In this document: positions 744-13,665 of the stretch, piece by piece | Numbering within the stretch: position 1 is the stretch's first letter | Layout: the number at the start of each line of letters is the position of its first letter | From: an uncultured Sphingomonas sp. | GTDB lineage: Bacteria; Pseudomonadota; Alphaproteobacteria; Sphingomonadales; Sphingomonadaceae | Assembly (NCBI RefSeq): GCF_946477935.1 | Contig: NZ_CAMLAC010000002.1 | Span: forward strand, 378 to 64,377 | DNA length: 64,000 bases | Direction of reading: 5' to 3' | The notes under the pieces: model-generated | Seen by the model: only the letters and a program-made list of their open reading frames with translations | Database searches by the model: none | Told to the model about the DNA's origin: nothing | Translations under genes and position numbers: made by a program

Positions 744-895
744 TGACACCTGCGGCAAGACGGACGCCCCCCACAACCCCATCCGCTCACCCGTGTTGCC
801 GCTACGCGGCTGCCCGCACCAGCTCCCTCCAGGGGTTCCCCGGCACGCTGTGCGCGCCGGTGTGGAGCGCCTCCGCACGCCGCTTTTCGGTGTCA
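744..895 (+). promoter_or_regulatory. Nested inverted-repeat element upstream of ssb (candidate ssDNA promoter/ssi)
   Basis: TGACACC (744-750) pairs with GGTGTCA (889-895); internal GCGGCAA (752-758) pairs with TTGCCGC (796-802); loosely resembles the elements at 2965 and 6548. Confidence 0.4.
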
Positions 896-934
896 CCGGC
901 GGAAAGGCTGCTGGTCCCAGAGAGGAGTATCCCC

Positions 935-1255
935 ATGAACAACGTCAACATCGCCGGCCGCGTCGCCAAAGACCCCGAGACACGCGGCACCGTCACCACC
1001 CTCATCGTCGCGACGGATCGCTTGAAGCTCAAGGACGGCAAGACCTATGTCGACGAGGTGACCGGCTATACCGCCAAGGATACCGAGTTCCACAGGGTGA
1101 CCTGCTTTAACGGGCTCGCGCGATCGGGTGCATCACGCAAGAAGGGCGACGTCGTCGCGATCACCGGAAGCCTCCATTATTCGAGCTGGGACGACCGCGA
1201 TGGTGTCACTCGCTACGGATGCGAGATCTGGGCCGACAAGATCGACTTCTTCTGA
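935..1255 (+). CDS. ssb: Single-stranded DNA-binding protein, OB-fold only
   Basis: MNNVNIAGRVAKDPE...TEFHRVTCFN...KKGDVVAITGSL...YGCEIWADKIDFF; AGAGGAG RBS before ATG 935; 106 aa with no acidic tail. Confidence 0.9.
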   Translation: MNNVNIAGRVAKDPETRGTVTTLIVATDRLKLKDGKTYVDEVTGYTAKDTEFHRVTCFNGLARSGASRKKGDVVAITGSLHYSSWDDRDGVTRYGCEIWADKIDFF

Positions 1256-1264
1256 GACGCGGCG

Positions 1265-1284
1265 GGCGGCGCCTTGGCGCCGCC
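1265..1284 (+). terminator. GC hairpin after ssb
   Basis: GGCGGCGCC-TT-GGCGCCGCC perfect 9-bp stem; no clear U-tract. Confidence 0.35.
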
Positions 1285-1316
1285 TCGTCACCACAGCGGA
1301 CCCGAGCTAGAGACCT

Positions 1317-1490
1317 TCAGCCGTGACGCGGCGGAACGACGAGCAGATCCGCTACGCTCTGTGCAAATCCCTGCGCCAGCAGCGCCTCTTCTCGCGTCAA
1401 TATGATCTCGTTCGCCATGCTCGCGTCGAGCAAATTCTTGAGCCGGGCCGCTAGTGCCAAGGCGGCTTCCTTGATCAATGCTTCATCCAT
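1317..1490 (-). CDS. Small hypothetical protein (57 aa)
   Basis: MDEALIKEAALALAARLKNLLDASMANEIILTREEALLAQGFAQSVADLLVVPPRHG*; protein-like composition; below the ORF-track cutoff. Confidence 0.35.
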   Translation of the reverse strand: MDEALIKEAALALAARLKNLLDASMANEIILTREEALLAQGFAQSVADLLVVPPRHG

Positions 1491-1604
1491 CTCGCGCCCC
1501 GCGTCGTTGATGCCGGTGCTTTACGGGCAGGCGCGGGACTCATGTCGCACTGCTACCCGTCGTCGTCAGGCCATAGCATGGTTCACGGCACGAGCAGACC
1601 CGCC

Positions 1605-2732
1605 CTATTCTCCTTCTGCGGGGAGCGGCGCTGCGAGCGGGGTCACCGCGGTCGCATAAACCCAGGCTCGTGCAAGCTGGCCGGAGAGCGGGTCTCGGAA
1701 CAGGACCTTGTGCCAACGGCCCTTTCTCTCTTCCACCGCAATCTCGGTATCCTGCGGCGCCTTCCACACGACGGCTCCGCTGCGCGACGGCGCATCTCGC
1801 AATGTCGCAGCCCGCGCCAGATAGCCGCGCTGATGCTTCGCCAGGAGGGCCGCTTCGGACTGGGCTGCGGCTTCGTGGTACCTGTGATGCTCTGCCTGCG
1901 CCCGATCGATCTTCTCGTGCAACGAGCTGAAGGCGGCCTTCTCATCAGGGCTCATCGTCTGCTGCTGCGGTATCAGCGCATAGGCGCCCAAAATAGTCAG
2001 AATGAAGCTGATGAAACCGACCAGGCCCATGCGTTGCAACTCCGGCAACGTGTTGGGACCAAGACCCTGGAAGAAGCTCTGGACGAGATCGAACAACGAG
2101 CCCTGCAGCCGGGCTGTCTCTTCATCCGTTTCCGCAGTGACGATCGCCGCAGCCACCTGCTGCATCTCGATCACGGTGCGCGCCGCGAACGCGGTCGCGG
2201 TTTCCCGCTCCTCGTCGCTGGCGCGCAGGGTTAGCGTATCGATCACGAGCATTCGCTCGGCGATCGCGCTGAAGGTCGTGAACCGCGGTAGCGCCTCGGC
2301 GATCACACGCCTGTAGGTCTCGCCAACACTGGCGGAAGCGATCGCCGATGCAACCAGCGACTGGCTCGCTCCGAACGCACGCACCGTATCGAGCACCGAC
2401 GAGGCCAGATGCCGCTGCTGGTCAAGCAACGACCTGTCCTGTCCGGCGAGCCGGCGCGCCGTTTCGGTCACCGACAGCGCCCAGGCATTGCTGGTCAGAT
2501 GCTTGAGGCTCTCGCGTTGTTTGCGATCCCGCTCAAGCGTGTCGAGGATTCCGCGATAAGGCGCGTCGAAATCAAATCCGCGCAGCATCTCGCTGGCGGT
2601 CTTCGCGTGTTTCATCGCGTCGGCGACTGCGCTGCCGCCGAGCGCATTGCGGTACAGGGCAGCGCGTTCGCGTTCCTCGCGAAGGAATCGGTCGGTGGCG
2701 CTCTCGGGCAGGCCAAAAGGGTTGGTCCTCAT
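1605..2732 (-). CDS. Hypothetical membrane-anchored protein with C-terminal bacterial SH3-like domain
   Basis: 375 aa; one hydrophobic segment (GLVGFISFILTILGAYALI), then a coiled coil and ATLRDAPSRSGAVV...EIAVEERKGRWHKV...RAWVY, typical of SH3b. Confidence 0.6.
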   Translation of the reverse strand: MRTNPFGLPESATDRFLREERERAALYRNALGGSAVADAMKHAKTASEMLRGFDFDAPYRGILDTLERDRKQRESLKHLTSNAWALSVTETARRLAGQDRSLLDQQRHLASSVLDTVRAFGASQSLVASAIASASVGETYRRVIAEALPRFTTFSAIAERMLVIDTLTLRASDEERETATAFAARTVIEMQQVAAAIVTAETDEETARLQGSLFDLVQSFFQGLGPNTLPELQRMGLVGFISFILTILGAYALIPQQQTMSPDEKAAFSSLHEKIDRAQAEHHRYHEAAAQSEAALLAKHQRGYLARAATLRDAPSRSGAVVWKAPQDTEIAVEERKGRWHKVLFRDPLSGQLARAWVYATAVTPLAAPLPAEGE

Positions 2733-2964
2733 GAAGGCAATCCTGTCAGATCGACACGCCCGGTGCGACCAACATTTCGAGAACCGACATTCACCATCAC
2801 CAGGGCTCGACGCATCCCACCCTGCGGGCGGGACCGGCGCTCTACTCGCCTGCGGCTCCCGGAGCCCCGTCTCCGTCGGGTCTCCGCCCTCCGGGTGACG
2901 ATCACCTTGCGGGTGCGTGGGGAGAGGTCAAGGAAAAAATCTCTCTCTCTGAATTCCTAGTTGT

Positions 2965-3144
2965 GACGTGCGGGGATCCGAGCCCGTCAAGGATGAGCGG
3001 TCCCCCCAATTTTCACGAACCCTCCGCTTCGCTCCGGGCACGAGAAAATCGGCTCCCCCGCTCCCCGCTTCGCGGCGTTAACCGGGGTCCGGCTGGCGCC
3101 GGCTTCCCGGTTAACGTCCCTGACCGGCACGACCACCGCACGTC
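2965..3144 (+). promoter_or_regulatory. Large nested stem-loop A upstream of the DUF2493 gene (Frpo/ssi-like candidate)
   Basis: GACGTGCGG(2965)/CCGCACGTC(3136-3144); GTCAAGGA(2986)/GTCCCTGAC(3116-3124); ATTTTC(3009)/GAAAAT(3044); CGTTAACCGGG(3076)/CCCGGTTAACG(3106-3116). Confidence 0.6.
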
Positions 3145-3189
3145 GATTGAAAAGCCTCATCGAATGGATGAGTTTCCAAGGAGGCTATC

Positions 3190-4167
3190 ATGCAGACCAG
3201 TTTCACCAACTTCGCCGACCTCGCCAGCCACATTGCCGCCGCACGCGAAAACGAGGACCTGACGCAGACCTACGAAGGCGCCTTCATCGAGCATAACGAA
3301 ATGGCGAAGCTCAGCATTGTCGAGGCGCCGGAAGCGCTGGACATGCCCGATCCCGAGCAGGTCCGAGCCGCCGTCGAGATGATGATGCAGACGATGTTCG
3401 ATGTGCTGCGCGACACGCGCATGGAGGCCTTCGCGACCGATCTCGCCTGGGGTTTCGCGAACAGCTTCCACGTGGTGGCGAAGCGGATCGAAGGCCGGGA
3501 GGATGACGCGGCCAAGAAGCTCGGCGACCTCGCCCGCGCCTACGACCCCTCCGAGATCTACGCGACCGAACTGGAGGACACGCAGCTCCTCTGCCAGACG
3601 CTGCAGGGGTGCCGGGAGGCGATGGAGTGCATGCGCGACCATGCCGCCGAAGTCTATCGCGTCGAGACCGGCAAGCCCTTCTCGCCGGTCCGGGGAAGCC
3701 GGGTGTCGAGCGCGCTCAACGCCTCGATGATCGATGCCCGCGACTATCTCGCCTCACGCGCCCGGGAACGCCGCGAACAGTTCGCGCCTGAGGGACCCGT
3801 GGTGGCCTTCTCCGGCGGTCAGGTTTGGGAAGACGGCGACCTGCTCTGGAAGGGCCTCGACAGCATCAAGGCGCGCATCCCCGAGATGATCCTCGCGACG
3901 ACCGCACAGGCCAAGGGGTGCGATGCCGCGGCGCACGCATGGGCCGCCTCGCGCGGCGTGAAGGTGATCCAGTTCCGGCTCGATCGCAGCCAGGGCAACC
4001 GGGCGGCGTTCGTGCGCAACGACCGCATCCTCAACCTCAAGCCGGTCGAAGCGGTCATCTGCGAGGGCTCGGGCATTCAGCAGAACCTCGCCCAGAAGCT
4101 GCGGCAGGCAGGTGTCCCGCTGCACATCGTCCGCCTCGCCCAGCAGCGCAGCCAGCGCGCCGCGTGA
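3190..4167 (+). CDS. DUF2493 (YspA-related SLOG) domain protein
   Basis: 325 aa; C-terminal VVAFSGG...ILATTAQAKGCDAAAHAWAASRGV...AAFVRNDRIL...EGSGIQQNL is the DUF2493/SLOG pattern; GGAGG RBS. Confidence 0.8.
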   Translation: MQTSFTNFADLASHIAAARENEDLTQTYEGAFIEHNEMAKLSIVEAPEALDMPDPEQVRAAVEMMMQTMFDVLRDTRMEAFATDLAWGFANSFHVVAKRIEGREDDAAKKLGDLARAYDPSEIYATELEDTQLLCQTLQGCREAMECMRDHAAEVYRVETGKPFSPVRGSRVSSALNASMIDARDYLASRARERREQFAPEGPVVAFSGGQVWEDGDLLWKGLDSIKARIPEMILATTAQAKGCDAAAHAWAASRGVKVIQFRLDRSQGNRAAFVRNDRILNLKPVEAVICEGSGIQQNLAQKLRQAGVPLHIVRLAQQRSQRAA

Positions 4168-4178
4168 TGCGCTTGTCC

Positions 4179-4218
4179 GAGAGGCTCCGGCGACCGCTGG
4201 GGCCTCTCTTCCTTTCTT
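4179..4218 (+). terminator. Probable intrinsic terminator
   Basis: GAGAGGCTCC...GGGGCCTCTC stem followed by TTCCTTTCTT. Confidence 0.5.
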
Positions 4219-4355
4219 GCGTCGTCGGGCGGCGCTCAGGGGCGTCGAGCCCCTTCGCGCTGCGCGATTGAGCGCGCGCGCGCACGCTCTGAAGCCCCGC
4301 CGGGGGCGGCAGAGGGGAGGGGGAGGGGCGGTTGCAGATCAGCAGGGAGGTCAAG

Positions 4356-4934
4356 ATGTCCGTCACGTTCCGCATCGCCACTGCCGCCGACGATCGCGAC
4401 GGCCCGACCGCCGCCATTACCACCTGTCAACTCGCCGCGTTTCGCACGTTTCTTCGCGAACAGGGCGAACGCTATGGCATCGTCCTCGCTGACCCCGATC
4501 CGGACGAACGCGGCTTCCTCCCCAATCATCTCGAAGCGAGGGTCTGCCCGGTGGCGCTGGCCACGATCGCCAGGCTGTTCGACTATGACGAGGCGGTCAT
4601 CACCGTGGTCGAGGAAGCCCAGTTCCGGCGCCGCCGCATCAGCGTCTATCCTGTCGACCAGGCCAGCACGCTAGCCATGGGCATCGCACTCACATCCGAC
4701 CTCGGTCACGAACTCGATCTCGCATCGAACAACGCTTTCGCGCTGCTCGAAAGCCTCGGCCTCCGACCGGACAGCGTCGGCGAAATTCCGGTGCATGCAG
4801 TGCTCGCCCGCCTCTCACATCCGGCCGTTCGCCGCCGCGCCATGGCGGAAGGCACCAGTACCTATCTCGATCGACTTGATCGGCTTCTGGCCACCGCCGA
4901 TCCCGATGATGCGCCGCGGTTGGAATGGGCATAG
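4356..4934 (+). CDS. Hypothetical leading-region protein (192 aa)
   Basis: GGGAGG RBS before ATG 4356; high-GC3 codon use; followed by a terminator. No family recognised. Confidence 0.75.
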   Translation: MSVTFRIATAADDRDGPTAAITTCQLAAFRTFLREQGERYGIVLADPDPDERGFLPNHLEARVCPVALATIARLFDYDEAVITVVEEAQFRRRRISVYPVDQASTLAMGIALTSDLGHELDLASNNAFALLESLGLRPDSVGEIPVHAVLARLSHPAVRRRAMAEGTSTYLDRLDRLLATADPDDAPRLEWA

Positions 4935-4961
4935 CCTCCGTCCAATCTACGCCACAGCGCA

Positions 4962-4995
4962 GGGCGCGTCGCTCCGGCGGCGCGCCCATTTTTTT
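4962..4995 (+). terminator. Intrinsic terminator
   Basis: GGGCGCGTCGC-TCCG-GCGGCGCGCCC followed by ATTTTTTT. Confidence 0.7.
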
Positions 4996-5547
4996 GCTTG
5001 CCGGACCCGAGATCCCGGTCGCAGCCGGCCCTCAATTGTGCGGCGGTGCTCGGTCGCTCTCGCTCACCGGCTGGCGAAGCAAAGCGTCGATCGCCCGCTG
5101 CGTATGGCTGGCAGCCGCGACCTCTCCCGCGGTCCCGAGATAGACCAGCGTCTGACGTAGCAGCGCCAGCGCCAGCGCGCGCGCGACGACCTGCTCTGAT
5201 GGGTTCGCATCCATGTCCCGATCCCGAGCGCGAAGGTGATCCCAGCGGCAGTCGGCGGAGCGCCCAGCCAACAACTCCCGCGCGCTAGGCGCGGGAGCCG
5301 GGGCTGGTAACACGTCGAGACATGCGCCTACGCTTTTAGTGCCGAGGCACCTGGACATATGCGCAGGCACCCCGGCGTGATCACTCACCCCGAGTTGCCG
5401 TTCTCGACGGGATTACCAGTCCCGGCGCCGCCCGTTTCGCAGCGCCCGAGCGGACTAACATGTGGCTGGACATCGAACCATAAATTTGTGGATCGAAGGC
5501 TCAGGCGACGGCCTGCCGAGGCCACCGGCCACGGCGACCTCGGAGAA

Positions 5548-6417
5548 CTAGTTCTCGCTCTTTGACGTAGTCTGGTTAAGCTTTTCCCGCAGTGCGAATG
5601 CGCGCAGCATCTCGTCGAAACCCATCATTATCGCCCGCCGCTGGGTACCTGGCCCACCTGCCGGGTCGTCTCCCTCCCAGATCACGGGAACCGCGCCCTC
5701 TGGGATCTCGAACCGCTGAAAAACAGCGGCGGCATAGTGGGCCATTTGTTTAAGCGCTGGAGTGTAGAATCCGAGCACTAGGGCCATTAGCCCGTCATGA
5801 GCTTTCCGGTAGTCAACAGCCAGTGCGGTTAGGTCGAGCGGGCCGGAGCCGAGGGTCAGCAGTTCGGTGCGGACCTTCTTGTTGACCCTGCTGCTGGCCG
5901 CAAGGGTCGCAGGGTAAAGCTGAAGGCCAATGCGGGCCGCCATTACCCCATCCGCCATGCGATCCGCATTGATCGGCACGAAGGAAATCGGCAGTTCGTG
6001 GTGCTGCGCGAAATTGCGCAGCTGACACAGGCAGCGATACGCGAAGCTCGTGTCGAACCAGTGGTTTGTCGCTGCCTCAAACGCCGCAGGCTCGACGCCC
6101 TGCTTGCCGAACTGGCCCAGCAGCCTGGTCTTCGACCGATCACGAAATGCGCTGGCTGCGCCCAGAAAATTGCCGATCCGGCGCTGCGCCTCGGCATTGG
6201 CATCCACACCTGCGGGGATCGTGATCATCGCGGTCGCCAATTGTCGCGACAAAGCCTCACCGATCTCGACCTCCGTGCGTTCGAAAGCCGCGTAATCTTC
6301 CGACAATGCAAGATAGTCGACCATGTACGGTCGCAGCAGTTCCACGACGCGCGTGTACTGCCGGAATTCGGACCAGATTGTCGCGTCGATCGGCCGGGCA
6401 TCGATCTTGAGGTCCAT
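5548..6417 (-). CDS. Hypothetical protein with HEPN-like R-x4-H motif
   Basis: ~289 aa from MDLKIDARP (start could be 6486); contains FAYRCLCQLRNFAQHHELPI (LRNFAQH encoded at 6001-6021). Confidence 0.6.
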   Translation of the reverse strand: MDLKIDARPIDATIWSEFRQYTRVVELLRPYMVDYLALSEDYAAFERTEVEIGEALSRQLATAMITIPAGVDANAEAQRRIGNFLGAASAFRDRSKTRLLGQFGKQGVEPAAFEAATNHWFDTSFAYRCLCQLRNFAQHHELPISFVPINADRMADGVMAARIGLQLYPATLAASSRVNKKVRTELLTLGSGPLDLTALAVDYRKAHDGLMALVLGFYTPALKQMAHYAAAVFQRFEIPEGAVPVIWEGDDPAGGPGTQRRAIMMGFDEMLRAFALREKLNQTTSKSEN

Positions 6418-6547
6418 CGCCCCGCCGGGCTTCGGGACATACCATCCAAACCGGCGGCGCCCGGGCAGATGGCCAACGTCCTTCATCCATCCACCCCCGC
6501 GGTCGCCCCCAATAAGAGGGTAAAATCTCTCACAGACTTCCAAGGAT

Positions 6548-6722
6548 GTCGTTGAGGGAGCCGCCGCGTCAAGGACGGCGGGGCCCCACCATTTTCTTCG
6601 GCGGATCGAGGCCGGTTCCCAGCCTTCGGCGACAGTGGCCGCCGAAGAAAATCGTGACCCCCACCGCCGCTGCGCGGCGCCGGCGTTGCCGGCGTCCCTG
6701 ACCCGGCGGCTCCCTCAACGAC
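6548..6722 (+). promoter_or_regulatory. Large nested stem-loop B upstream of the 74-aa gene (Frpo/ssi-like candidate)
   Basis: Perfect 19-bp IR GTCGTTGAGGGAGCCGCCG (6548-6566/6704-6722); GTCAAGGACG/CGTCCCTGAC (1 mismatch); perfect 14-bp IR ATTTTCTTCGGCGG (6591-6604/6639-6652). Confidence 0.65.
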
Positions 6723-6760
6723 GGCCATTCCCCTGTCATTCAAGACGACAGGAGGCTTCC

Positions 6761-6985
6761 ATGCAGACCATCTCGACCGCCGCCCACGCCGACGCCGCAA
6801 ACTACCTCGCCGCCCTCGCATTCGCAGAGCGCCGAGCACTTCACAGCTTCTTCGACCAGCACGTCATTGAGGAGGGGGACGGACGCTACGTCGCCATCGA
6901 CGAGGGCGACTATGATGCGCTGCCGATGACGCTCATCGACCGGGTCGTCCACACGGTTCCGGGACGCATGTCCGACGAATTCTGA
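6761..6985 (+). CDS. Small acidic hypothetical protein (74 aa)
   Basis: AGGAGG RBS, MQTISTAAHAD...RMSDEF*, 13 D/E vs 5 R and 0 K; followed by a terminator. Confidence 0.8.
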   Translation: MQTISTAAHADAANYLAALAFAERRALHSFFDQHVIEEGDGRYVAIDEGDYDALPMTLIDRVVHTVPGRMSDEF

Positions 6986-7020: not shown

Positions 7021-7096
7021 GCCTGGAGATGAGCAGTCATGGGGGGCATCGAACCCCCCATGACCGCGCCGCGGCGATGCCGCGGCAGGTGCGGAT

Positions 7097-7315
7097 TCAG
7101 GCCGCCAATCGCTTCTCGACTTCCTCGATACCAAGTCGCTTGATGCGATCGGCGAGGTCCGCCAGTCGCTTGGCCTCGAGCTTGAGCAGGCCCGACTTCT
7201 CGACCGTCGCGATCGCCTGCTCGCGTTCGCGTTCCTCCAGCCTTCGTCGCCGCTCATCCAGCCGGCGCTCATCTTCCTCGAGCGCCAAACGCTCCTGTTC
7301 CAAGGTCTTTGCCAT
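7097..7315 (-). CDS. Small coiled-coil protein next to oriT (72 aa)
   Basis: MAKTLEQERLALEEDERRLDERRRRLEERE...GIEEVEKRLAA; heptad-like charged helix; position resembles oriT-flanking mobilisation/stability genes. Confidence 0.65.
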   Translation of the reverse strand: MAKTLEQERLALEEDERRLDERRRRLEEREREQAIATVEKSGLLKLEAKRLADLADRIKRLGIEEVEKRLAA

Positions 7316-7754: not shown

Positions 7755-7787
7755 ATATGCACACCCTACGCACCTGAAGGTGCAGGG
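7755..7787 (-). other. oriT: oriT core with predicted nic site (nick on minus strand between 7761 and 7760)
   Basis: Minus strand reads CCCTGCACC-TTCA-GGTGCGTAGGGTGT^GCATAT, combining an R388-like GCACC-N4-GGTGC hairpin (R388 GCACCGAAAGGTGCGTATTGTCT^ATAG) with an F-like TGCGT.GGGTGT^G nick context; upstream of the RHH-T4CP-relaxase operon. Confidence 0.8.
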
Positions 7788-8006
7788 TTTTCGTTGCTGC
7801 ACAACGGCTTAGCGCGGAAGAGAAGGGGAGTACGCCGTAGTACGTTAACGGTGGAGCGTGAAAGGCGCAGATTTCCGCCATTCTCTGGTACTACGCCAGA
7901 CTACGGCGCAGGCGTATAATAAGACCAGCTTGTCGCTTCCCTGCCGCCGAGGTATAAGCGTCGCCATTCTTCAGTCCCCACCAGCCTCCCTGCTAGGAGG
8001 TTGGTC

Positions 8007-8297
8007 TTGGCTACCAATTACCGGCACTACAATATTCGCCTGGAGCGCTCCCAATGGGATCGCCTCAGCGCGATCGCGGCCGATCAGAAGCTGACCGTCG
8101 CCGACATCATCCGGTCGGCGCTCGACGTCTTCCTTTCCTCCTCCGATTTGCTGACCGCCAGCCAGCGGCGCCTGGCCCGCATCAGCGAGTTTCAGCAGCT
8201 CGCACTCGATGTCATCATCCGCGAGCAATACCCCGAATTGCGCGACCGTCTGGTGGCCGAAACCGACAAGCGCCTGGTGCAATATCATGGCGCGTGA
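8007..8297 (+). CDS. Ribbon-helix-helix relaxosome accessory protein (TrwA/TraY-like position)
   Basis: HYNIRLERSQWDRLSAIAADQKLTVADIIRSALD is an RHH pattern; AGGAGG RBS then TTG; overlaps the coupling-protein start. Confidence 0.75.
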   Translation: MATNYRHYNIRLERSQWDRLSAIAADQKLTVADIIRSALDVFLSSSDLLTASQRRLARISEFQQLALDVIIREQYPELRDRLVAETDKRLVQYHGA

Positions 8298-10590
8298 GGA
8301 CATCCGCTCGAACGGGCAGAACATCCCGCTCACCCACCACTCCGCGCGTGGTCGCGTGCAGCGCAACTCCGGCAATTTCACCCGCGGCTCCCAGCTCCTG
8401 ACCCACGAAATGCTCATGTGGTTTTCGGGTGCGCGGCTGCCCGTCATCGCATGGTTCTTTGCCTTCCTCCTCGCCTGGTTCGCGATCCTGTCATTCCGCC
8501 TCGACGAGCATGGTTTCCAGCTCGTCTGCATGAAGCTCTACGCGACGCTCTGGAACTGGATCGAGCTCAACCCGAACAAGCGCGTCAACGTCACGCTGCC
8601 CAACGGCGAGATCATGCGCACGATCATGCCGGCAGTGCCGTTCATTCCCGAGGTTCAGCAGGCTTGGGCGACGACGATGCGGGCCCTGGTCGGATCTCTG
8701 CTGGTCTCGCTTTTCGTGGTGGTGCCGTTAGCGATCTGGTTCATCGATCTCTCGCGCCGGCGTGGCAAGACGATCCTTCAGGAGCGACACGAACGTGGCG
8801 CCATGCTCGTCGAAAACGCCGTGCTTCAGTCCGAAATCGCCCGGCACAACCTCGCCAGCTTCGAAGACGATGCGCGCAAATTCTTTCCCGCGCTCTCGCC
8901 GAAGGCCGTGCTGAGGCTGACGTTCCAGGAGCGGAAGGCGGGCGGCATCCACCACCCCTATTCGCTCGCCGGCGTGCCTTACCCGCACCGCATGGAGCAA
9001 TCCCACACGATGCTGATCGGGACGACGGGATCGGGCAAAACCACGGAGCTTCGCAGCCTCGTCGCCCAAATGCGCGAGCGCCGGGACAATGCCGTCATCT
9101 TCGACCTGACCGGGGCCTATGTCGAAGCCTTTTTCGACCCTGCCCGCGACACGATCCTGAACCCGATGGACCAGCGCTGCCCGGCCTGGTCGATCTTCAA
9201 CGACTGCCTTACGCACAGCGAATTCACCGCCGCCGCGGCCGCGTTGATTCCCTCCGACGGCGGGTCCTCCGAACCCTTCTGGGCGCTGGCCGCCCGCACA
9301 CTGTTCATCGAGATGTGCATCCGGCTTCAGGAACGGGGTCAGACCACCAATCTGGCGCTGTCCGAGAACCTGATGACCGCGGATCTCAAGCGGGTCCACC
9401 GCTTCCTCGCCAACACGATCGCGGATCCACTGACCGCCCCGGAAGCCGCCCGCATGGCGGAGTCGATCCGCGCCGTGTTCAATACCAATGCGCAGGTCCT
9501 GCGCTTCCTCCCCGACGAGGGCGAGCAGTTCTCGATCCGCGACTGGATCACGGGCGAAAAGCAGCCCGGCGCGATCCTCTTCATCACCTCCAATTACGTC
9601 GATCTGCCGATGAACCGGGCGCTGCTGACGCTCTGGATGGACCTGTGCATCAATCGCCTGATGACCATGCCGCGCACCCGCTCGCTGCGCATGTGGTTCA
9701 TGTTCGACGAGCTCGGCGCGCTCCACAAACTACCCGCCATCGAGAACGGCCTGCAGACCGCCCGCGCGTTCGGCGGCGCTATGATCCTGGGCATTCACAG
9801 CTTCGAGAAGCTGGTCGAGGTCTATGGCGAGCAGGGCGCCCGCAATCTCGCGTCGCTGGCGCGCTCGAAGCTCATTCTCGCGACCGCTGACCTCGACACC
9901 GCCGAGCAGTGCGCGCGCTACATCGGCAACCGCGAAGTCCGCCAGATGGATGAGGCCTATAGCTACGGCTACAACAACAATCGCGACGCCTCGACGCTGA
10001 CACCCAGGAAACAGGTCGAGCCGCTCGTCATCGCCGACGACATCACCAACCTCCCTTCGATGCATGGCTTCGTGAAGTTCCCGGACGGCTTCCCGGCCGC
10101 GCGCATCCTGCTCGAGTGGAAGGACTATCCCCAGGTCGCCCCGGGGTTCGTCGCCAGACCCTCGATGCAGCCTGTCCGCTCTCGCCGCGGCGAGGAGGCA
10201 TTCGCGGACGAGGGGGGTGAGGCGGGCGGTCGCGACGGCGCCGTCCAGATCGTCGACGAGGTGGTCGATACAACAAATCTCGCCAAGGAGATGGCGGCGA
10301 GGATCCTGCAGATGCCTGCCGCGGAGCATGTCATAGAAGCCGACCGGGCGGCGCAGCGTGCCGACGACAAGAACGAACAATCGACTCCCGCCAGCCACGC
10401 TGCCCACAAGGCCCAGGCGGCACGCGAGAAGTCCGAGGGACATCAGCCTGCGAACCGCTCGTCGGACGAGCGCCGCGACGGCCGCGCCGCGCCGCCACAG
10501 AATAGCCAGGTCGAGAACCAGACGCTCGTTGAATTGCGCCACGGTATCGCTGTCGGCCGCGACGACAGCGATCTCGACATGGGCATTTGA
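8287..10590 (+). CDS. Type IV coupling protein (TrwB/TraD family)
   Basis: Two N-terminal TM segments, Walker A GTTGSGKT, Walker B WFMFDELGAL, acidic low-complexity C-tail; 767 aa. Confidence 0.93.
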   Translation: MAREDIRSNGQNIPLTHHSARGRVQRNSGNFTRGSQLLTHEMLMWFSGARLPVIAWFFAFLLAWFAILSFRLDEHGFQLVCMKLYATLWNWIELNPNKRVNVTLPNGEIMRTIMPAVPFIPEVQQAWATTMRALVGSLLVSLFVVVPLAIWFIDLSRRRGKTILQERHERGAMLVENAVLQSEIARHNLASFEDDARKFFPALSPKAVLRLTFQERKAGGIHHPYSLAGVPYPHRMEQSHTMLIGTTGSGKTTELRSLVAQMRERRDNAVIFDLTGAYVEAFFDPARDTILNPMDQRCPAWSIFNDCLTHSEFTAAAAALIPSDGGSSEPFWALAARTLFIEMCIRLQERGQTTNLALSENLMTADLKRVHRFLANTIADPLTAPEAARMAESIRAVFNTNAQVLRFLPDEGEQFSIRDWITGEKQPGAILFITSNYVDLPMNRALLTLWMDLCINRLMTMPRTRSLRMWFMFDELGALHKLPAIENGLQTARAFGGAMILGIHSFEKLVEVYGEQGARNLASLARSKLILATADLDTAEQCARYIGNREVRQMDEAYSYGYNNNRDASTLTPRKQVEPLVIADDITNLPSMHGFVKFPDGFPAARILLEWKDYPQVAPGFVARPSMQPVRSRRGEEAFADEGGEAGGRDGAVQIVDEVVDTTNLAKEMAARILQMPAAEHVIEADRAAQRADDKNEQSTPASHAAHKAQAAREKSEGHQPANRSSDERRDGRAAPPQNSQVENQTLVELRHGIAVGRDDSDLDMGI

Positions 10591-10593
10591 TCG

Positions 10594-13500
10594 ATGCACT
10601 CGATCGCCTCGGTCCGCTCCGCATCGGGTGCCGCGAGCTATTTCGCGAAGGACGACTTCCAGGACGATTACTACACCGCTGACGGAGCCTCGGAGGTCAA
10701 TAGCTGGGGCGGGAAAGGGGCCGAGACGCTCGGCCTGGAAGGCGAGGTCTCGCGGGAATCATTCGAGGCGGTCCTGAGCGGGATACTGCCGAGCGGCGAG
10801 GGCGTGGCGCAGGTCGAGAATCGCCGTCACGGGCTTGATCTCACCTTCTCGGCGCCGAAGTCCGTTTCGGTCATGGCCTATGTCGCCGGCGACAAGCGCG
10901 TGCTCGCCGCCAACATGGCGGCCGTCCAGAAAACCATGGCGTGGGTCGAGAGGAATCTCGCCGAGGGGCGCAAGGATGTCGAAGGGCGCAAGGTGCCGGT
11001 CCAGACCGGCAATCTTGTCTATGCGCTCTTCCAGCACGACACCAGCCGCGCGCTCGATCCGCAGGCCCACGTCCATGCCGTGGTCGCCAACCTGACGCAG
11101 ATGCCGGACGGCAAATGGCAGGCACTTCATGCCGACAAGATCTGGAGCCACAACGCGACGATCGGCGCCATCTACCACGCCTATCTGCGGGCCGGGCTTG
11201 AGAAGCTGGGTTATCAGGTCGAGTTGAAGGGCAAGCACGGCACCTTCGAGATATCGGGCGTGCCGAAAGCGGTGATCGATGCCTTCAGCCAGCGGCGCGA
11301 GGCGATCCTTGAAAAGGCTGCCGCGCTCGGGATCGTCTCAGCCAAGGGTCGCGACGGCGTCACTACCACGACCCGCGATCCCAAGCTTAACGTCGAGGAC
11401 CGCGACGGGCTCGTTAAAGGCTGGATCGACAAGGCGTCGGGGCTCGGCTTCGACGGCAATAGCCTAATCGCCGCAGCCACAGCCCGCGCCGGTCAGCGTC
11501 TCGGGGCGGGGCCGATCGAGCGCGGATATCGCGCGGTAAGCGATGCGATCGCGAGCGCTCGCACGTCGCTCGGCGGGTTCCTGCGCCCACGCGATCCTCT
11601 CGTCGACAGCGGGCTCGCTCGCGCTACCCAGTCACCGGCGATTGCGCGCTCGCAGCTCGCGGTCGCGTCGGCAGTCCGGATCCTGGCGGAGCGCGAGGCG
11701 GCGTTCAACGTCCATCTGCTCGCAAGGACCGCGTTGGACCTCGGCTTGCAAGGCGTCACGATCGACACGGTCGAGCACCGGATCGGCCAGCTCCTCGAGA
11801 CCCGCCAGCTCCTCCCCGGGGTCGCGAGAGCCGGCGACAGGGGCGTCCAGATGGTAACCACGCAGGAAGCGCTGCGCACCGAAGAAGCGATCCTGAAAAG
11901 CGTTGAGGCAGGGGCCGGCACGGCAGATCCGGTCGTAGCGGCGAGTGCGGCGCCCGAGCGCCTGCAGAGTGTCGCCGATCGGCCGCTCAACGCCGGCCAG
12001 CTTGCTGCCGCGACCCTGATCCTGTCGTCGCCCGACCGCACCGTCACCATTCAGGGTGTCGCCGGTGCCGGCAAGTCGACGATGCTGCAGGCCGTGGCCC
12101 GGATCGCAGAAGCCGAGGGCCGCACAGTGCTCGGCCTCGCCTTTCAGAACAAGATGGTCGCGGACTTGGCCGAGGGTGCCGGCATCAAGAGCCAGACGAT
12201 CGCGTCCTTCGTCCTCGCGAACGAACGGTTTGTCACCGAGCGCGATACGAACCGATTCGAGGAAGCGCAGGCCCGGCTGGCAGGCGCCTTGCTGGTGGTC
12301 GACGAGACCTCGATGGTCTCGAGCAGCGACCTGCTGATGCTGCACCGGATCACCGGGGCGCTCGGCGTCGACAAGCTGGTGCTGGTCGGCGATCGCCAGC
12401 AGCTCTCCTCGATCGACGCCGGCAAATCGTTTGCGATGATCCAGGCGGCCGGAGGGACGATGGCGCGGATGGACGAGAACATCCGTCAGCGCACCGACAC
12501 GCTGCGGACGGTCGCCGCGCTCGCCAATGTCGGCCGGGCGGGCGAGGCGATGAAGGTGCTGGGCGACAATGTCCATGAGAGCGCGAGTCCACCCGAGACG
12601 GCGGCGGGCATGTGGCTCGCACTATCGGCCGAGGACCGCGATGCCACAGCCGTGTTCGCGTCGGGCCGCGCATCGCGCGCGATCATCAATCAACGTATCC
12701 AGGACGGCCTTGCGGCCGAAGGAACGGTGCGAGGGCAGGGTATCCATCTCACGGTCTTCGAGCGCGTCAACCTCACGCGCGAGGAGCTGCGCTACGCCTC
12801 GACCTATCAGGTCGGCCAGACGCTCGACGTCGGCCGCGGGGGCGCGCAGGACATCGGTCTCAAGCAGGGGCGCTACGATGTCACGCGCGTGCTGCCGAGC
12901 GGCAAGATCGAGCTCAGCGATGGGCGGCGGCATATCCGCTTCGATCCCCAAAGCCTGTCGCCCACCGAAAAGCGGGATCGGCTCGAACTTACCCAGAAAA
13001 AGGACCTCCACGTCCACGAGGGCGACCGCATCCGCTGGACCGCCAACGACAAGCCCCGCGACCTCCATAACGCCGCGCTCGCGCGTGTGGTGTCGGTGGA
13101 CAGCGCGGGGGTGACGGTCGAAACCGCGGGCAAGCAGACGCTCACGCTCGATCTCGGCGATCCGATGCTGTCGCGGCTCGATCTCGCCTACGCGCTCAAC
13201 ATGCACATGGCGCAAGGCATCACGACCGACAAAGCTATCACGGTGATGGACAGCCACGAGCGCAACCTGTCCAACCAGCGGCTCTTCAATGTCGGTGTCA
13301 CCCGCGTGCGCGACGAGCTCGTCATGGTGGTGGATGACAAGGGGAAGCTGGAGCGCCAGCTCGACCTCAATCCGGGCAACAAGACCTCGGCGCTCGAGAC
13401 GCTCGGGCGCATCGACATCGACGGAAGGAAGGGGCCCGCCGCGCCGGTGAAGTTCGATCCCGGCCCGATCGACGGCATCAATCTGGCCGGCGAGCCCGAC

Positions 13501-13665
13501 CTCCTCGCCGACTTGCCGCCCCTCCCGGACGGACCCCTCACGCCGGCCGCTGCGCCCGCAGCCGCATCGAAGAGCGGCGAACTCAAGGCCCCTGCAGACC
13601 TTAAAGCCGACAAGGGCGACCTGCTGCCGCCGCTGCCGGAGCGCAGCCTCGGGCTCGATTTGTGA
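10594..13665 (+). CDS. MOBF relaxase-helicase (TrwC/TraI family)
   Basis: N-terminal YF..DD..DDYY tyrosines, HUH motif FQHDTSRALDPQAHVHAVVAN, helicase Walker A GVAGAGKST, VVDETSM, AYALNMHMAQG; 1023 aa. Confidence 0.96.
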   Translation: MHSIASVRSASGAASYFAKDDFQDDYYTADGASEVNSWGGKGAETLGLEGEVSRESFEAVLSGILPSGEGVAQVENRRHGLDLTFSAPKSVSVMAYVAGDKRVLAANMAAVQKTMAWVERNLAEGRKDVEGRKVPVQTGNLVYALFQHDTSRALDPQAHVHAVVANLTQMPDGKWQALHADKIWSHNATIGAIYHAYLRAGLEKLGYQVELKGKHGTFEISGVPKAVIDAFSQRREAILEKAAALGIVSAKGRDGVTTTTRDPKLNVEDRDGLVKGWIDKASGLGFDGNSLIAAATARAGQRLGAGPIERGYRAVSDAIASARTSLGGFLRPRDPLVDSGLARATQSPAIARSQLAVASAVRILAEREAAFNVHLLARTALDLGLQGVTIDTVEHRIGQLLETRQLLPGVARAGDRGVQMVTTQEALRTEEAILKSVEAGAGTADPVVAASAAPERLQSVADRPLNAGQLAAATLILSSPDRTVTIQGVAGAGKSTMLQAVARIAEAEGRTVLGLAFQNKMVADLAEGAGIKSQTIASFVLANERFVTERDTNRFEEAQARLAGALLVVDETSMVSSSDLLMLHRITGALGVDKLVLVGDRQQLSSIDAGKSFAMIQAAGGTMARMDENIRQRTDTLRTVAALANVGRAGEAMKVLGDNVHESASPPETAAGMWLALSAEDRDATAVFASGRASRAIINQRIQDGLAAEGTVRGQGIHLTVFERVNLTREELRYASTYQVGQTLDVGRGGAQDIGLKQGRYDVTRVLPSGKIELSDGRRHIRFDPQSLSPTEKRDRLELTQKKDLHVHEGDRIRWTANDKPRDLHNAALARVVSVDSAGVTVETAGKQTLTLDLGDPMLSRLDLAYALNMHMAQGITTDKAITVMDSHERNLSNQRLFNVGVTRVRDELVMVVDDKGKLERQLDLNPGNKTSALETLGRIDIDGRKGPAAPVKFDPGPIDGINLAGEPDLLADLPPLPDGPLTPAAAPAAASKSGELKAPADLKADKGDLLPPLPERSLGLDL

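Follow-up and report, generated by a model that had tools for sequence, protein, structure and literature searches.

Branched hairpins in the leading regions of alphaproteobacterial conjugative plasmids are candidate single-stranded DNA promoters of the Frpo type

Early expression depends on the Frpo1 and Frpo2 elements of the F plasmid, which fold on the transferred strand (T-strand), rebuild -35 and -10 boxes, and are silenced by conversion to duplex DNA (PMC9849209). Work on pESBL and F distinguished three classes of single-stranded DNA (ssDNA) promoters, which were confirmed by RNA sequencing of transconjugants and by 5' rapid amplification of cDNA ends (PMC12672017). A large survey located Frpo-like sequences by BLAST to five known elements combined with heuristics for the boxes and makes no mention of Alphaproteobacteria (PMC11541004), and a preprint reports stalling of complementary-strand synthesis as a further effect of such a hairpin (10.64898/2026.01.09.698686). 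Our full-text literature searches that paired Frpo or "ssDNA promoter" with names of rhizobia or sphingomonads returned nothing relevant. To our knowledge, the only plasmids for which ssDNA promoters have been demonstrated are F and IncI1 plasmids in Escherichia coli; the usual way to find such promoters is by their similarity to five sequences already known. Here, we analyzed a stretch of 64,000 nucleotides (nt) from an uncultured Sphingomonas sp. (contig NZ_CAMLAC010000002.1, positions 378 to 64,377; referred to as the window), which opens with the leading side of a conjugative plasmid. It carries two related hairpins, element A, in front of a gene for a DUF2493/SLOG protein, and element B, in front of a gene for a 74-amino-acid (aa) protein. 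We consider it probable that A and B are Frpo-like ssDNA promoters of a new structural class, which would drive the genes behind them.

The initial annotation of this DNA had described two outer inverted repeats, and a repeat search recovered them at exactly 2965 to 3144 (element A) and 6548 to 6722 (element B); the arms in element B (6548 to 6581 and 6689 to 6722) are 34 nt long and 91% complementary. The inner parts that had been listed, a GTCAAGGA/TCCCTGAC stem, an ATTTTC/GAAAAT stem, and a CCGCT(T/G)CGCGG mini-hairpin, were each found in both elements. The architecture is indeed shared, as folding of the minus strand as ssDNA gave the same branched fold for A (-61.9 kcal/mol; z = -5.3) and B (-81.7 kcal/mol; z = -10.6), with energies that none of 200 shuffles matched. 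This fold has five helices: an outer stem, P1; P2, formed by GTCAGGGA and TCCTTGAC; two small hairpins on the 5' side, P4 and P5; and P3, a long hairpin that contains the ATTTTC/GAAAAT stem and a G-rich (G5/G5) internal loop. For element A, which scores 154 bits with the covariance model described below, P1 pairs 2965 to 2984 with 3125 to 3144, P2 pairs 2986 to 2993 with 3117 to 3124, and P3, P4 (a GAA mini-hairpin), and P5 occupy 2994 to 3060, 3065 to 3075, and 3077 to 3115, respectively. For element B (166 bits), the corresponding positions are 6548 to 6566 with 6704 to 6722 (P1), 6568 to 6575 with 6695 to 6702 (P2), 6576 to 6664 (P3), 6666 to 6678 (P4), and 6679 to 6693 (P5). Beyond P1, the minus strand continues into a conserved single-stranded 3' tail, TAGGAATTCAGAGAGAGAGATTTTTTCC at 2925 to 2959 in A and TGGAAGTCTGTGAGAGATTTTACCC at 6512 to 6542 in B; its consensus is GGAAG...GTGAGAGATTTT, and the Rhizobiales version is GGACGGACTGAGCAGAGATTT. 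The A/T-rich part of this tail (TAAAAT or AAAAAT) was tried as a plus-strand duplex -10 and rejected, since Rhizobiales copies do not keep the hexamer and it comes without a -35. Across the whole window, Rfam gave no match at the gathering score and a permissive E-value search gave only chance-level matches; those to MIR7510, BjrC68, and Mu-gpT-DE were dismissed as chance or generic hairpins.

Three independent features point to folding of the minus strand, which serves as template for the downstream genes. The conserved wobble pair of P2, read on the minus strand, is GU 76 times, AU 27 times, and GC never, and that of P3 is GU 74 times; these G·T positions would become A·C mismatches on the plus strand. 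The minus-strand fold is also about 9 kcal/mol more stable than the plus-strand fold, in A and B alike. Finally, of 104 copies, 86 have a P4 loop of the form GNA or GNNA with a closing C-G pair (GAA in 45), and many P5 loops are of the same GNA/GNNA type. C-GNA-G is an unusually stable DNA mini-hairpin motif, exemplified by d(GCGAAGC), and its complement, TNC, is not known for such stability. Like the Frpo and single-strand initiation (ssi) elements of enterobacterial plasmids, A and B are stable and strand-specific stem-loops when single stranded.

The fold of the family is under selection. We built a covariance model, R1, from four copies, leaving P1 out of the model, and the search that the initial annotation had called for returned 189 copies from 83 sources. 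An alignment of 104 distinct sequences to R1 had 93.5% of cells paired and double changes in 12 of 26 pairs. No shuffle out of 500 reached any of five covariation measures, and sliding the partners by one to three columns lowered pairing to 30 to 57%. The 60 distinct arms of P1 are free to vary in sequence while complementarity is kept: duplex energies average -33.4 kcal/mol for cognate arms versus -20.4 kcal/mol for non-cognate arms. Because the spacer length varies, the MAFFT alignment of mini-hairpins is in register for only the seven P1 pairs proximal to P2, which show 4 to 7 pair types each; distal P1 was assessed by the cognate and non-cognate energies in place of formal pair counts.

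Promoter boxes are built into this structure. The 3' arm of P2 reads TCCTTGA, and its T's are constant while the pairing partner alternates between G and A, indicating that this arm is constrained as a sequence besides its role in pairing. Of the 107 unique copies, 86 have TTGACG or TTGAGG as a -35 hexamer. P1 then forms a spacer of 17, 18, or 19 nt in 32, 25, and 44 copies, respectively, and of 15 nt in six. The last base of P1 is a paired C (-12) in 91% of copies; the base after it is an unpaired A (-11) in 80%, and a T (-7) stands five positions on in 65%. Typical -10 hexamers are CACACT, CATGCT, CAGAAT, CATCAT, and CATCCT, and other alphaproteobacterial families follow the same pattern (TACAAT, TACGAT, CATACT, GATACT, and CAGAAT). 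With a spacer of 16 to 19 nt, 89 of 107 copies have an xAxxxT hexamer on the folded strand and 11 of 107 have one on the mirror strand (shuffles: mean, 15.5; maximum, 26), and the -35 on the mirror side is mostly degraded to CTGACC. These counts and the degraded mirror -35 place the sole complete promoter on the 3' arm of the T-strand. As duplex DNA, this promoter is directed away from the gene behind the element, and the hairpin alone joins promoter and gene. In element A, the -35 hexamer TTGACG (2985 to 2990, minus strand) lies in the 3' arm of P2, and the -10-like hexamer CACAAC (2960 to 2965) follows 19 nt past it, with C(-12) at 2965 as the last P1 pair. Element B has TTGACG at 6567 to 6572 and, 18 nt past it, CATCCT at 6543 to 6548 on the same strand, with C(-12) at 6548 as the last P1 pair. 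A(-11) is unpaired in both elements, as is T(-7) in element B. The stem rebuilds a -35 and a -10 as Frpo and ssi stems do, with a -10 that is weak by E. coli rules.

DNA of the fork-junction form, which is duplex to -12 and open from -11, is bound by sigma-70 holoenzyme without DNA melting. The 3' strand of the fold runs unbroken across P3, P2, and P1, with a single unpaired base separating P3 from P2, and this continuity would place the GAAAAT·ATTTTC helix, itself invariant, around -54 to -59, the position of an UP element. With a count of 12 to 13 nt along the 5' flank, beginning at the -12 pair, and with the folded T-strand as template, transcription of the DUF2493 gene is predicted to start at 3154 to 3158 on the plus strand; a small leader hairpin (3155 to 3173) and then a Shine-Dalgarno sequence (SD) follow. 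By the same geometry, the predicted start for the 74-aa gene is at 6733 to 6736 (plus strand), at the foot of another hairpin. A 5' end at the foot of a small leader hairpin would sensibly suit a stable mRNA. The hairpin beside element B, CCTGTC-ATTCAAGAC-GACAGG at 6731 to 6756, overlaps the SD of the 74-aa gene, is kept in relatives, and has a weak Rfam match to Mu-gpT-DE (E = 1.4); it may be a 5'-end stabilizer or serve translational control.

Both elements lie within the plasmid's leading region. The core of the origin of transfer (oriT), a GCACC-TTCA-GGTGC inverted repeat followed by GTAGGGTGT|GCAT, was located on the minus strand at 7755 to 7784 by alignment to IR2 and nic of R388. Read from 7784 to 7755, the minus strand has GCACC-TTCA-GGTGCGTAGGGTGT|GCAT; compared with R388, the inverted repeat is the same, GGTGCGTA is identical, and an F-like GGGTGT follows. 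The nicked strand of R388 (GCGCACCGAAAGGTGCGTATTGTCT|ATAG) is complementary to the trw coding strand and runs from trwA into the leading region. The R388- and F-like repeat and nic on the minus strand predict a nick between 7761 and 7760, with the minus strand leaving toward lower coordinates, which bears out the initial annotation in its claim that the genes on the plus strand point toward oriT and that the minus strand is transferred. Element B is 1.0 kb and element A 4.6 kb from the predicted nick, both on its 3' side, and the 74-aa gene is the first T-strand-templated gene past it. The oriT-core 8-mer occurs in the same orientation in 25 related loci, mostly about 1.0 to 1.1 kb past the last element. 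In the F plasmid, the leading genes are all oriented as traM, traJ, and traY. On the far side of oriT in the window, the plus-strand transfer genes (8001 to 13665) follow the R388 order trwA-trwB-trwC: a 98-aa putative accessory protein (8001 to 8297), a coupling protein (about 8287 to 10590), and a MobF relaxase (10594 to 13665), as assigned from annotations of homologous plasmids and the R388 layout. From this arrangement, the transfer genes would enter the recipient last. Elements A and B thus sit, as Frpo and ssi elements do, in the leading region, on the transferred strand, and upstream of T-strand-templated genes. Between the nic core and the 98-aa gene, 7828 to 7910 contain repeated GTACTACG and CGCCGTAGTAC motifs, which are plausible binding sites of the relaxosome accessory protein.

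BLAST matches to both elements were confined to alphaproteobacterial plasmids. Sequences like element A were found on 196 plasmids, including 79 of Rhizobium and 22 of Agrobacterium in addition to those of sphingomonads, and sequences like element B were found on 42 sphingomonad plasmids. Each leading region has 2 to 3 copies, each preceding a gene, and the orientation relative to the DUF2493 gene is identical in all 189 copies. Among the copies listed, an SD and start codon lie 30 to 75 nt past P1 on the opposite strand. A shared start context, GGAGGCTnnCATGCAGACCA, had been noted for the two genes; it is true of both window genes and does not extend to the family, where the DUF2493 gene's relatives begin with MTNF.. 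or MSK.. and have other contexts. In even samples of 401 genomes each, copies turned up in 11 genomes from the class and in 15 from the phylum, all in Alphaproteobacteria and in several families. The 3.9-Mb genome to which the window belongs has three copies (A, B, and a third on another contig), each by a coupling-protein/relaxase module. The third copy (7087 to 7246) sits in a second transfer module of the same genome (contig C10, 2300 to 14000; locus L100). Behind it, all on one strand, come a small gene, an 866-aa open reading frame of coupling-protein size, and a 1,009-aa open reading frame of relaxase size.

In complete plasmids, the placed copies were confined to leading regions. Four such plasmids (1.26 Mb) contain 10 copies, and all eight that were placed against annotation adjoin oriT; the ten-copy count includes two copies at 120 to 123 kb of pSWIT01 that were left unplaced. 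These form a second pair (CP000700.1, 120426 to 122982), about 60 kb from the first cluster, and two clusters are consistent with the two MOBF relaxases of pSWIT01 and a second leading region. The host plasmids span MOBF, MOBQ, and MOBP relaxases and include those of Agrobacterium and Rhizobium. On Agrobacterium pAtCFBP6624 (MOBQ) and Rhizobium pRLG203 (MOBP), a copy lies among genes for methylase-helicase, toprim, DUF2493, toxin-antitoxin, and DUF736 proteins, all co-oriented. In Rhizobiales and other families (loci L001, 9169 to 9333; L002, 9168 to 9332; L087, L088, and L104 to L106), the hairpin precedes a small conserved protein that starts M..(E/D)QHIEELRAEL, a candidate for the earliest-expressed establishment protein. 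The initial annotation had proposed a sphingomonad Frpo-like family. The Frpo-like reading was favored by each computational test that was run and is backed by the T-strand-specific covarying fold, the rebuilt boxes, and the leading-region copies; the restriction to sphingomonads is contradicted by the Agrobacterium and Rhizobium members.

We propose the following model for how the elements would work. After nicking at 7761/7760, the minus strand would enter the recipient 5' end first, bringing in element B at about 1 kb and element A at about 4.6 kb. Each element would fold into a four-way junction whose 3' strand passes through P3, P2, and P1, which would provide an A/T-rich UP-like helix, the -35 (TTGAC), and a 17- to 19-bp spacer, respectively. 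As the helix stops at C(-12), the bases from A(-11) to T(-7) and the GGAAG sequence would already be unpaired, as in a pre-melted fork-junction promoter. A host sigma-70-type RNA polymerase would bind this hairpin mimic and copy the 5' flank of the same strand, starting about 12 nt past the stem, near 3156 and 6734, and the product would be a short leader with a small hairpin, an SD, and the gene. Once the complementary strand had been made, the hairpin would be gone, the -35/-10 would face away from the gene, and expression from the promoter would end. The ssDNA promoters of F and pESBL are the precedent for this scheme, including duplex conversion as the off switch (PMC9849209, PMC12672017, PMC11541004). 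Polymerase binding, the start sites, and activity on ssDNA only are predictions of the model, as are the role of the UP-like A/T helix and a possible further role as a primer site or roadblock.

Several points weigh against this model. Element A has C, not T, at -7. A simple TTGACA/TATAAT scan gave no match in A or B, in keeping with a -10 that E. coli criteria would call weak, although we discount this null result because Frpo2 of F, which has been validated experimentally, escapes the same scan. The model assumes that the promoter fires outward and that sigma-70 holoenzyme can start on a template that is single stranded throughout, with no duplex downstream; pairing of the tail with the template flank, which would give such a duplex, was tested for both elements and none was found. 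The conserved 3' tail and the G5/G5 internal loop of P3 are not accounted for. Lastly, the -35/-10 could serve in duplex form as a leftward promoter, and both A and B have a divergent minus-strand gene on that side (1605 to 2732 and 5548 to 6489, respectively). Taken to its conclusion, this last point makes TTGAC-N17-19-yAnnnT an ordinary duplex promoter firing leftward, with the inverted repeats as operators or a regulating cruciform. The minus-strand motif has all the parts of a sigma-70-type promoter, and a leftward transcript would open with the conserved tail. However, the left neighbor is co-directional in pSWIT01, in the pAtCFBP6624 copy, and in the second pRLG203 copy, and in pSWIT01 a leftward promoter consequently has no divergent gene to serve. 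Moreover, protein operators keep sequence and not pairing, and such a promoter would leave unaccounted for the covariation of P1 to P4, the G·T wobbles, the GNA loops, the end of the stem at -12, and the constant spacing to the rightward gene. We consider this explanation very unlikely.

The strong covariation and the intergenic site ahead of genes would also fit a structure that works as RNA, either as the structured 5' leader of a plus-strand mRNA or as a minus-strand antisense small RNA over the ribosome-binding site; the hairpin that overlaps the SD beside element B points the same way, and TAAAAT or AAAAAT in the tail could be a plus-strand -10. Yet a plus-strand RNA would have A·C mismatches at the most conserved wobbles and TNC instead of GNA loops, and the promoter for a minus-strand RNA would have to lie within downstream coding regions that are unrelated, with no terminator for such an RNA. 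An RNA also fails to explain the invariant TTGAC with its variable partner and the yAnnnT at the stem end, and there is no Rfam family match, leaving this the least probable of the explanations that we weighed. The hairpins could instead be mainly single-strand initiation signals (ssi or sso type), on which a polymerase or primase makes a primer on the T-strand and gene expression is secondary or absent. The first description of Frpo already gave it both roles, promoter and primer site (Masai and Arai 1997, cited in PMC9849209 and PMC12672017). Priming and transcription would require the same geometry, and strand specificity and leading-region position fit it equally well; GNA mini-hairpins are typical DNA-level motifs, and related Rhizobiales leading regions have a toprim-domain gene. 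Priming, however, needs no fixed short gap to an SD and start codon, which the listed copies have, nor 2 to 3 copies per leading region that each stand before a gene, and the register of -35, spacer, and -10 indicates RNA polymerase and not primase. As the main function we hold priming to be unlikely, though it deserves some weight, and it is compatible with, not exclusive of, the ssDNA-promoter reading that we favor. We lean only slightly toward the broader proposal that the family is an undescribed class of ssDNA promoters, the first outside enterobacterial plasmids, in which a four-way junction mimics a promoter from the UP-like helix to the pre-melted -10, and that this class is common to MOBF, MOBQ, and MOBP conjugative plasmids of Alphaproteobacteria, megaplasmids of Agrobacterium and Rhizobium among them.

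A separate structure lies upstream of the plasmid ssb gene (935 to 1255, plus strand; 106 aa; PF00436, E = 2e-16), where the initial annotation had seen a looser element of the same kind. At 717 to 912 on the minus strand, we found a long outer stem with internal branches, in which 17 pairs show double (compensatory) changes across 19 sequences and G·T wobbles fall on the minus strand. The looser element is thus a real, covarying, and minus-strand-biased structure, but it is distinct from the main family: it has no R1 match, and the two have in common only a CCGC-GNA-GCGG mini-hairpin. A search of 717 to 912 for -35/-10 boxes found none in a sensible register, and this structure may be another class of ssDNA signal or a priming signal.

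The remaining features of the leading side are as follows. The window starts with two overlapping small plus-strand genes (4 to 614; 56 and 145 aa), which look like a toxin-antitoxin pair and whose products have no Pfam match. Two minus-strand genes (1317 to 1490 and 1605 to 2732) lie between ssb and element A. The DUF2493/SLOG gene behind element A (3190 to 4167, plus strand; PF10686, E = 5e-22) encodes a 325-aa protein whose C-terminal part is a SLOG domain of the DUF2493/YspA type. The terminator-like hairpin after this gene (4146 to 4215) has a sub-threshold Rfam match to BjrC68 (23 bits versus a gathering score of 39) and is most likely an intrinsic terminator. A 192-aa gene (4356 to 4934, plus strand) and a 313-aa gene (5548 to 6489, minus strand) precede element B, behind which lies the 74-aa gene (6761 to 6985, plus strand; MQTISTAAHADAANYLAA...), identified as an open reading frame. 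Next comes a 72-aa minus-strand gene (7097 to 7315), with a non-coding stretch beyond it. When the proteins behind the elements were compared with PHROGs and Pfam, the SLOG domain was the sole match, and the 74-aa protein was without a family.

ssDNA promoters explain how plasmids protect themselves during the first minutes after entry. If our proposal is true, conjugation in general would involve zygotic induction from the incoming strand, which would no longer be a peculiarity of IncF and IncI plasmids, and the elements would be a clean natural instance of a fork-junction promoter. From sequence alone, R1 would then tell which strand is transferred, where the leading region lies, and which genes (candidate anti-defense genes) are expressed earliest. 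The first-expressed genes here would be those for the SLOG/DUF2493 protein and the 74-aa protein, and in Rhizobiales they would be those of the small protein family with the EQHIEELRAEL motif. The hairpin would also be a compact part for making expression in alphaproteobacteria, Agrobacterium among them, depend on the strand state.

The closest described systems are Frpo1 and Frpo2 of F and ssi1 to ssi3 of ColIb-P9/pESBL, which belong to class 1 of the ssDNA promoters (Masai and Arai 1997; PMC9849209; PMC12672017; PMC11541004). Like these, A and B lie in the leading region of a MOBF-type plasmid ahead of T-strand-templated genes; they share with them a stable T-strand fold with a -35, a -10, and an A/T-rich upstream stretch, as well as the presence of several copies per leading region, and the model would have them silenced on duplex conversion in the same way. 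The two groups differ in shape and in hosts. Frpo2 is one imperfect hairpin of about 310 nt, whereas A and B are four-way junctions of about 180 nt with two GNA mini-hairpins and a -10 at the open end of the stem, and the hosts are Alphaproteobacteria for this family and Enterobacteria for Frpo and ssi. We sought the -35/-10 of Frpo2 from its fold in order to compare geometry, and the boxes were not assignable from sequence alone. Homology to Frpo or ssi was not found, either by BLAST, with matches in alphaproteobacterial plasmids only, or by R1, which scored at most 11 bits on the leading regions of F and R388. This lack of similarity in sequence or model, together with the different shape, suggests that the family is a functional analogue of Frpo and not a homologue. 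Precedent for unrelated hairpins that each rebuild the boxes and drive zygotic induction is given by class 2 (klcA/ardA) and class 3 (M.EcoGIX) of pESBL and F (PMC12672017). Those enterobacterial classes are defined by structure and position and not by homology, and A and B are set beside them by description only: by the broad criteria for classes 1 to 3, the position, hairpin, and boxes are present in A and B, and the start site is predicted.

More distant parallels exist outside conjugation. ssoA-type origins of rolling-circle plasmids support RNA-polymerase-dependent priming on a folded single strand, and they resemble A and B in being strand- and orientation-specific hairpins with -35/-10-like sequences that are read by host RNA polymerase; unlike A and B, they yield a short primer, are uncoupled from any gene, and reside on small rolling-circle plasmids of Firmicutes. 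For the virion RNA polymerase of phage N4, a hairpin on ssDNA coated with single-stranded-DNA-binding protein is the promoter. A physical likeness is also seen to sigma-70 fork-junction or pre-melted bubble templates, which are duplex to -12, have a single-stranded non-template strand from -11, and require no melting step. However, fork-junction templates are laboratory constructs and N4 employs a different polymerase, whereas A and B would be a natural and conserved design for the host holoenzyme.

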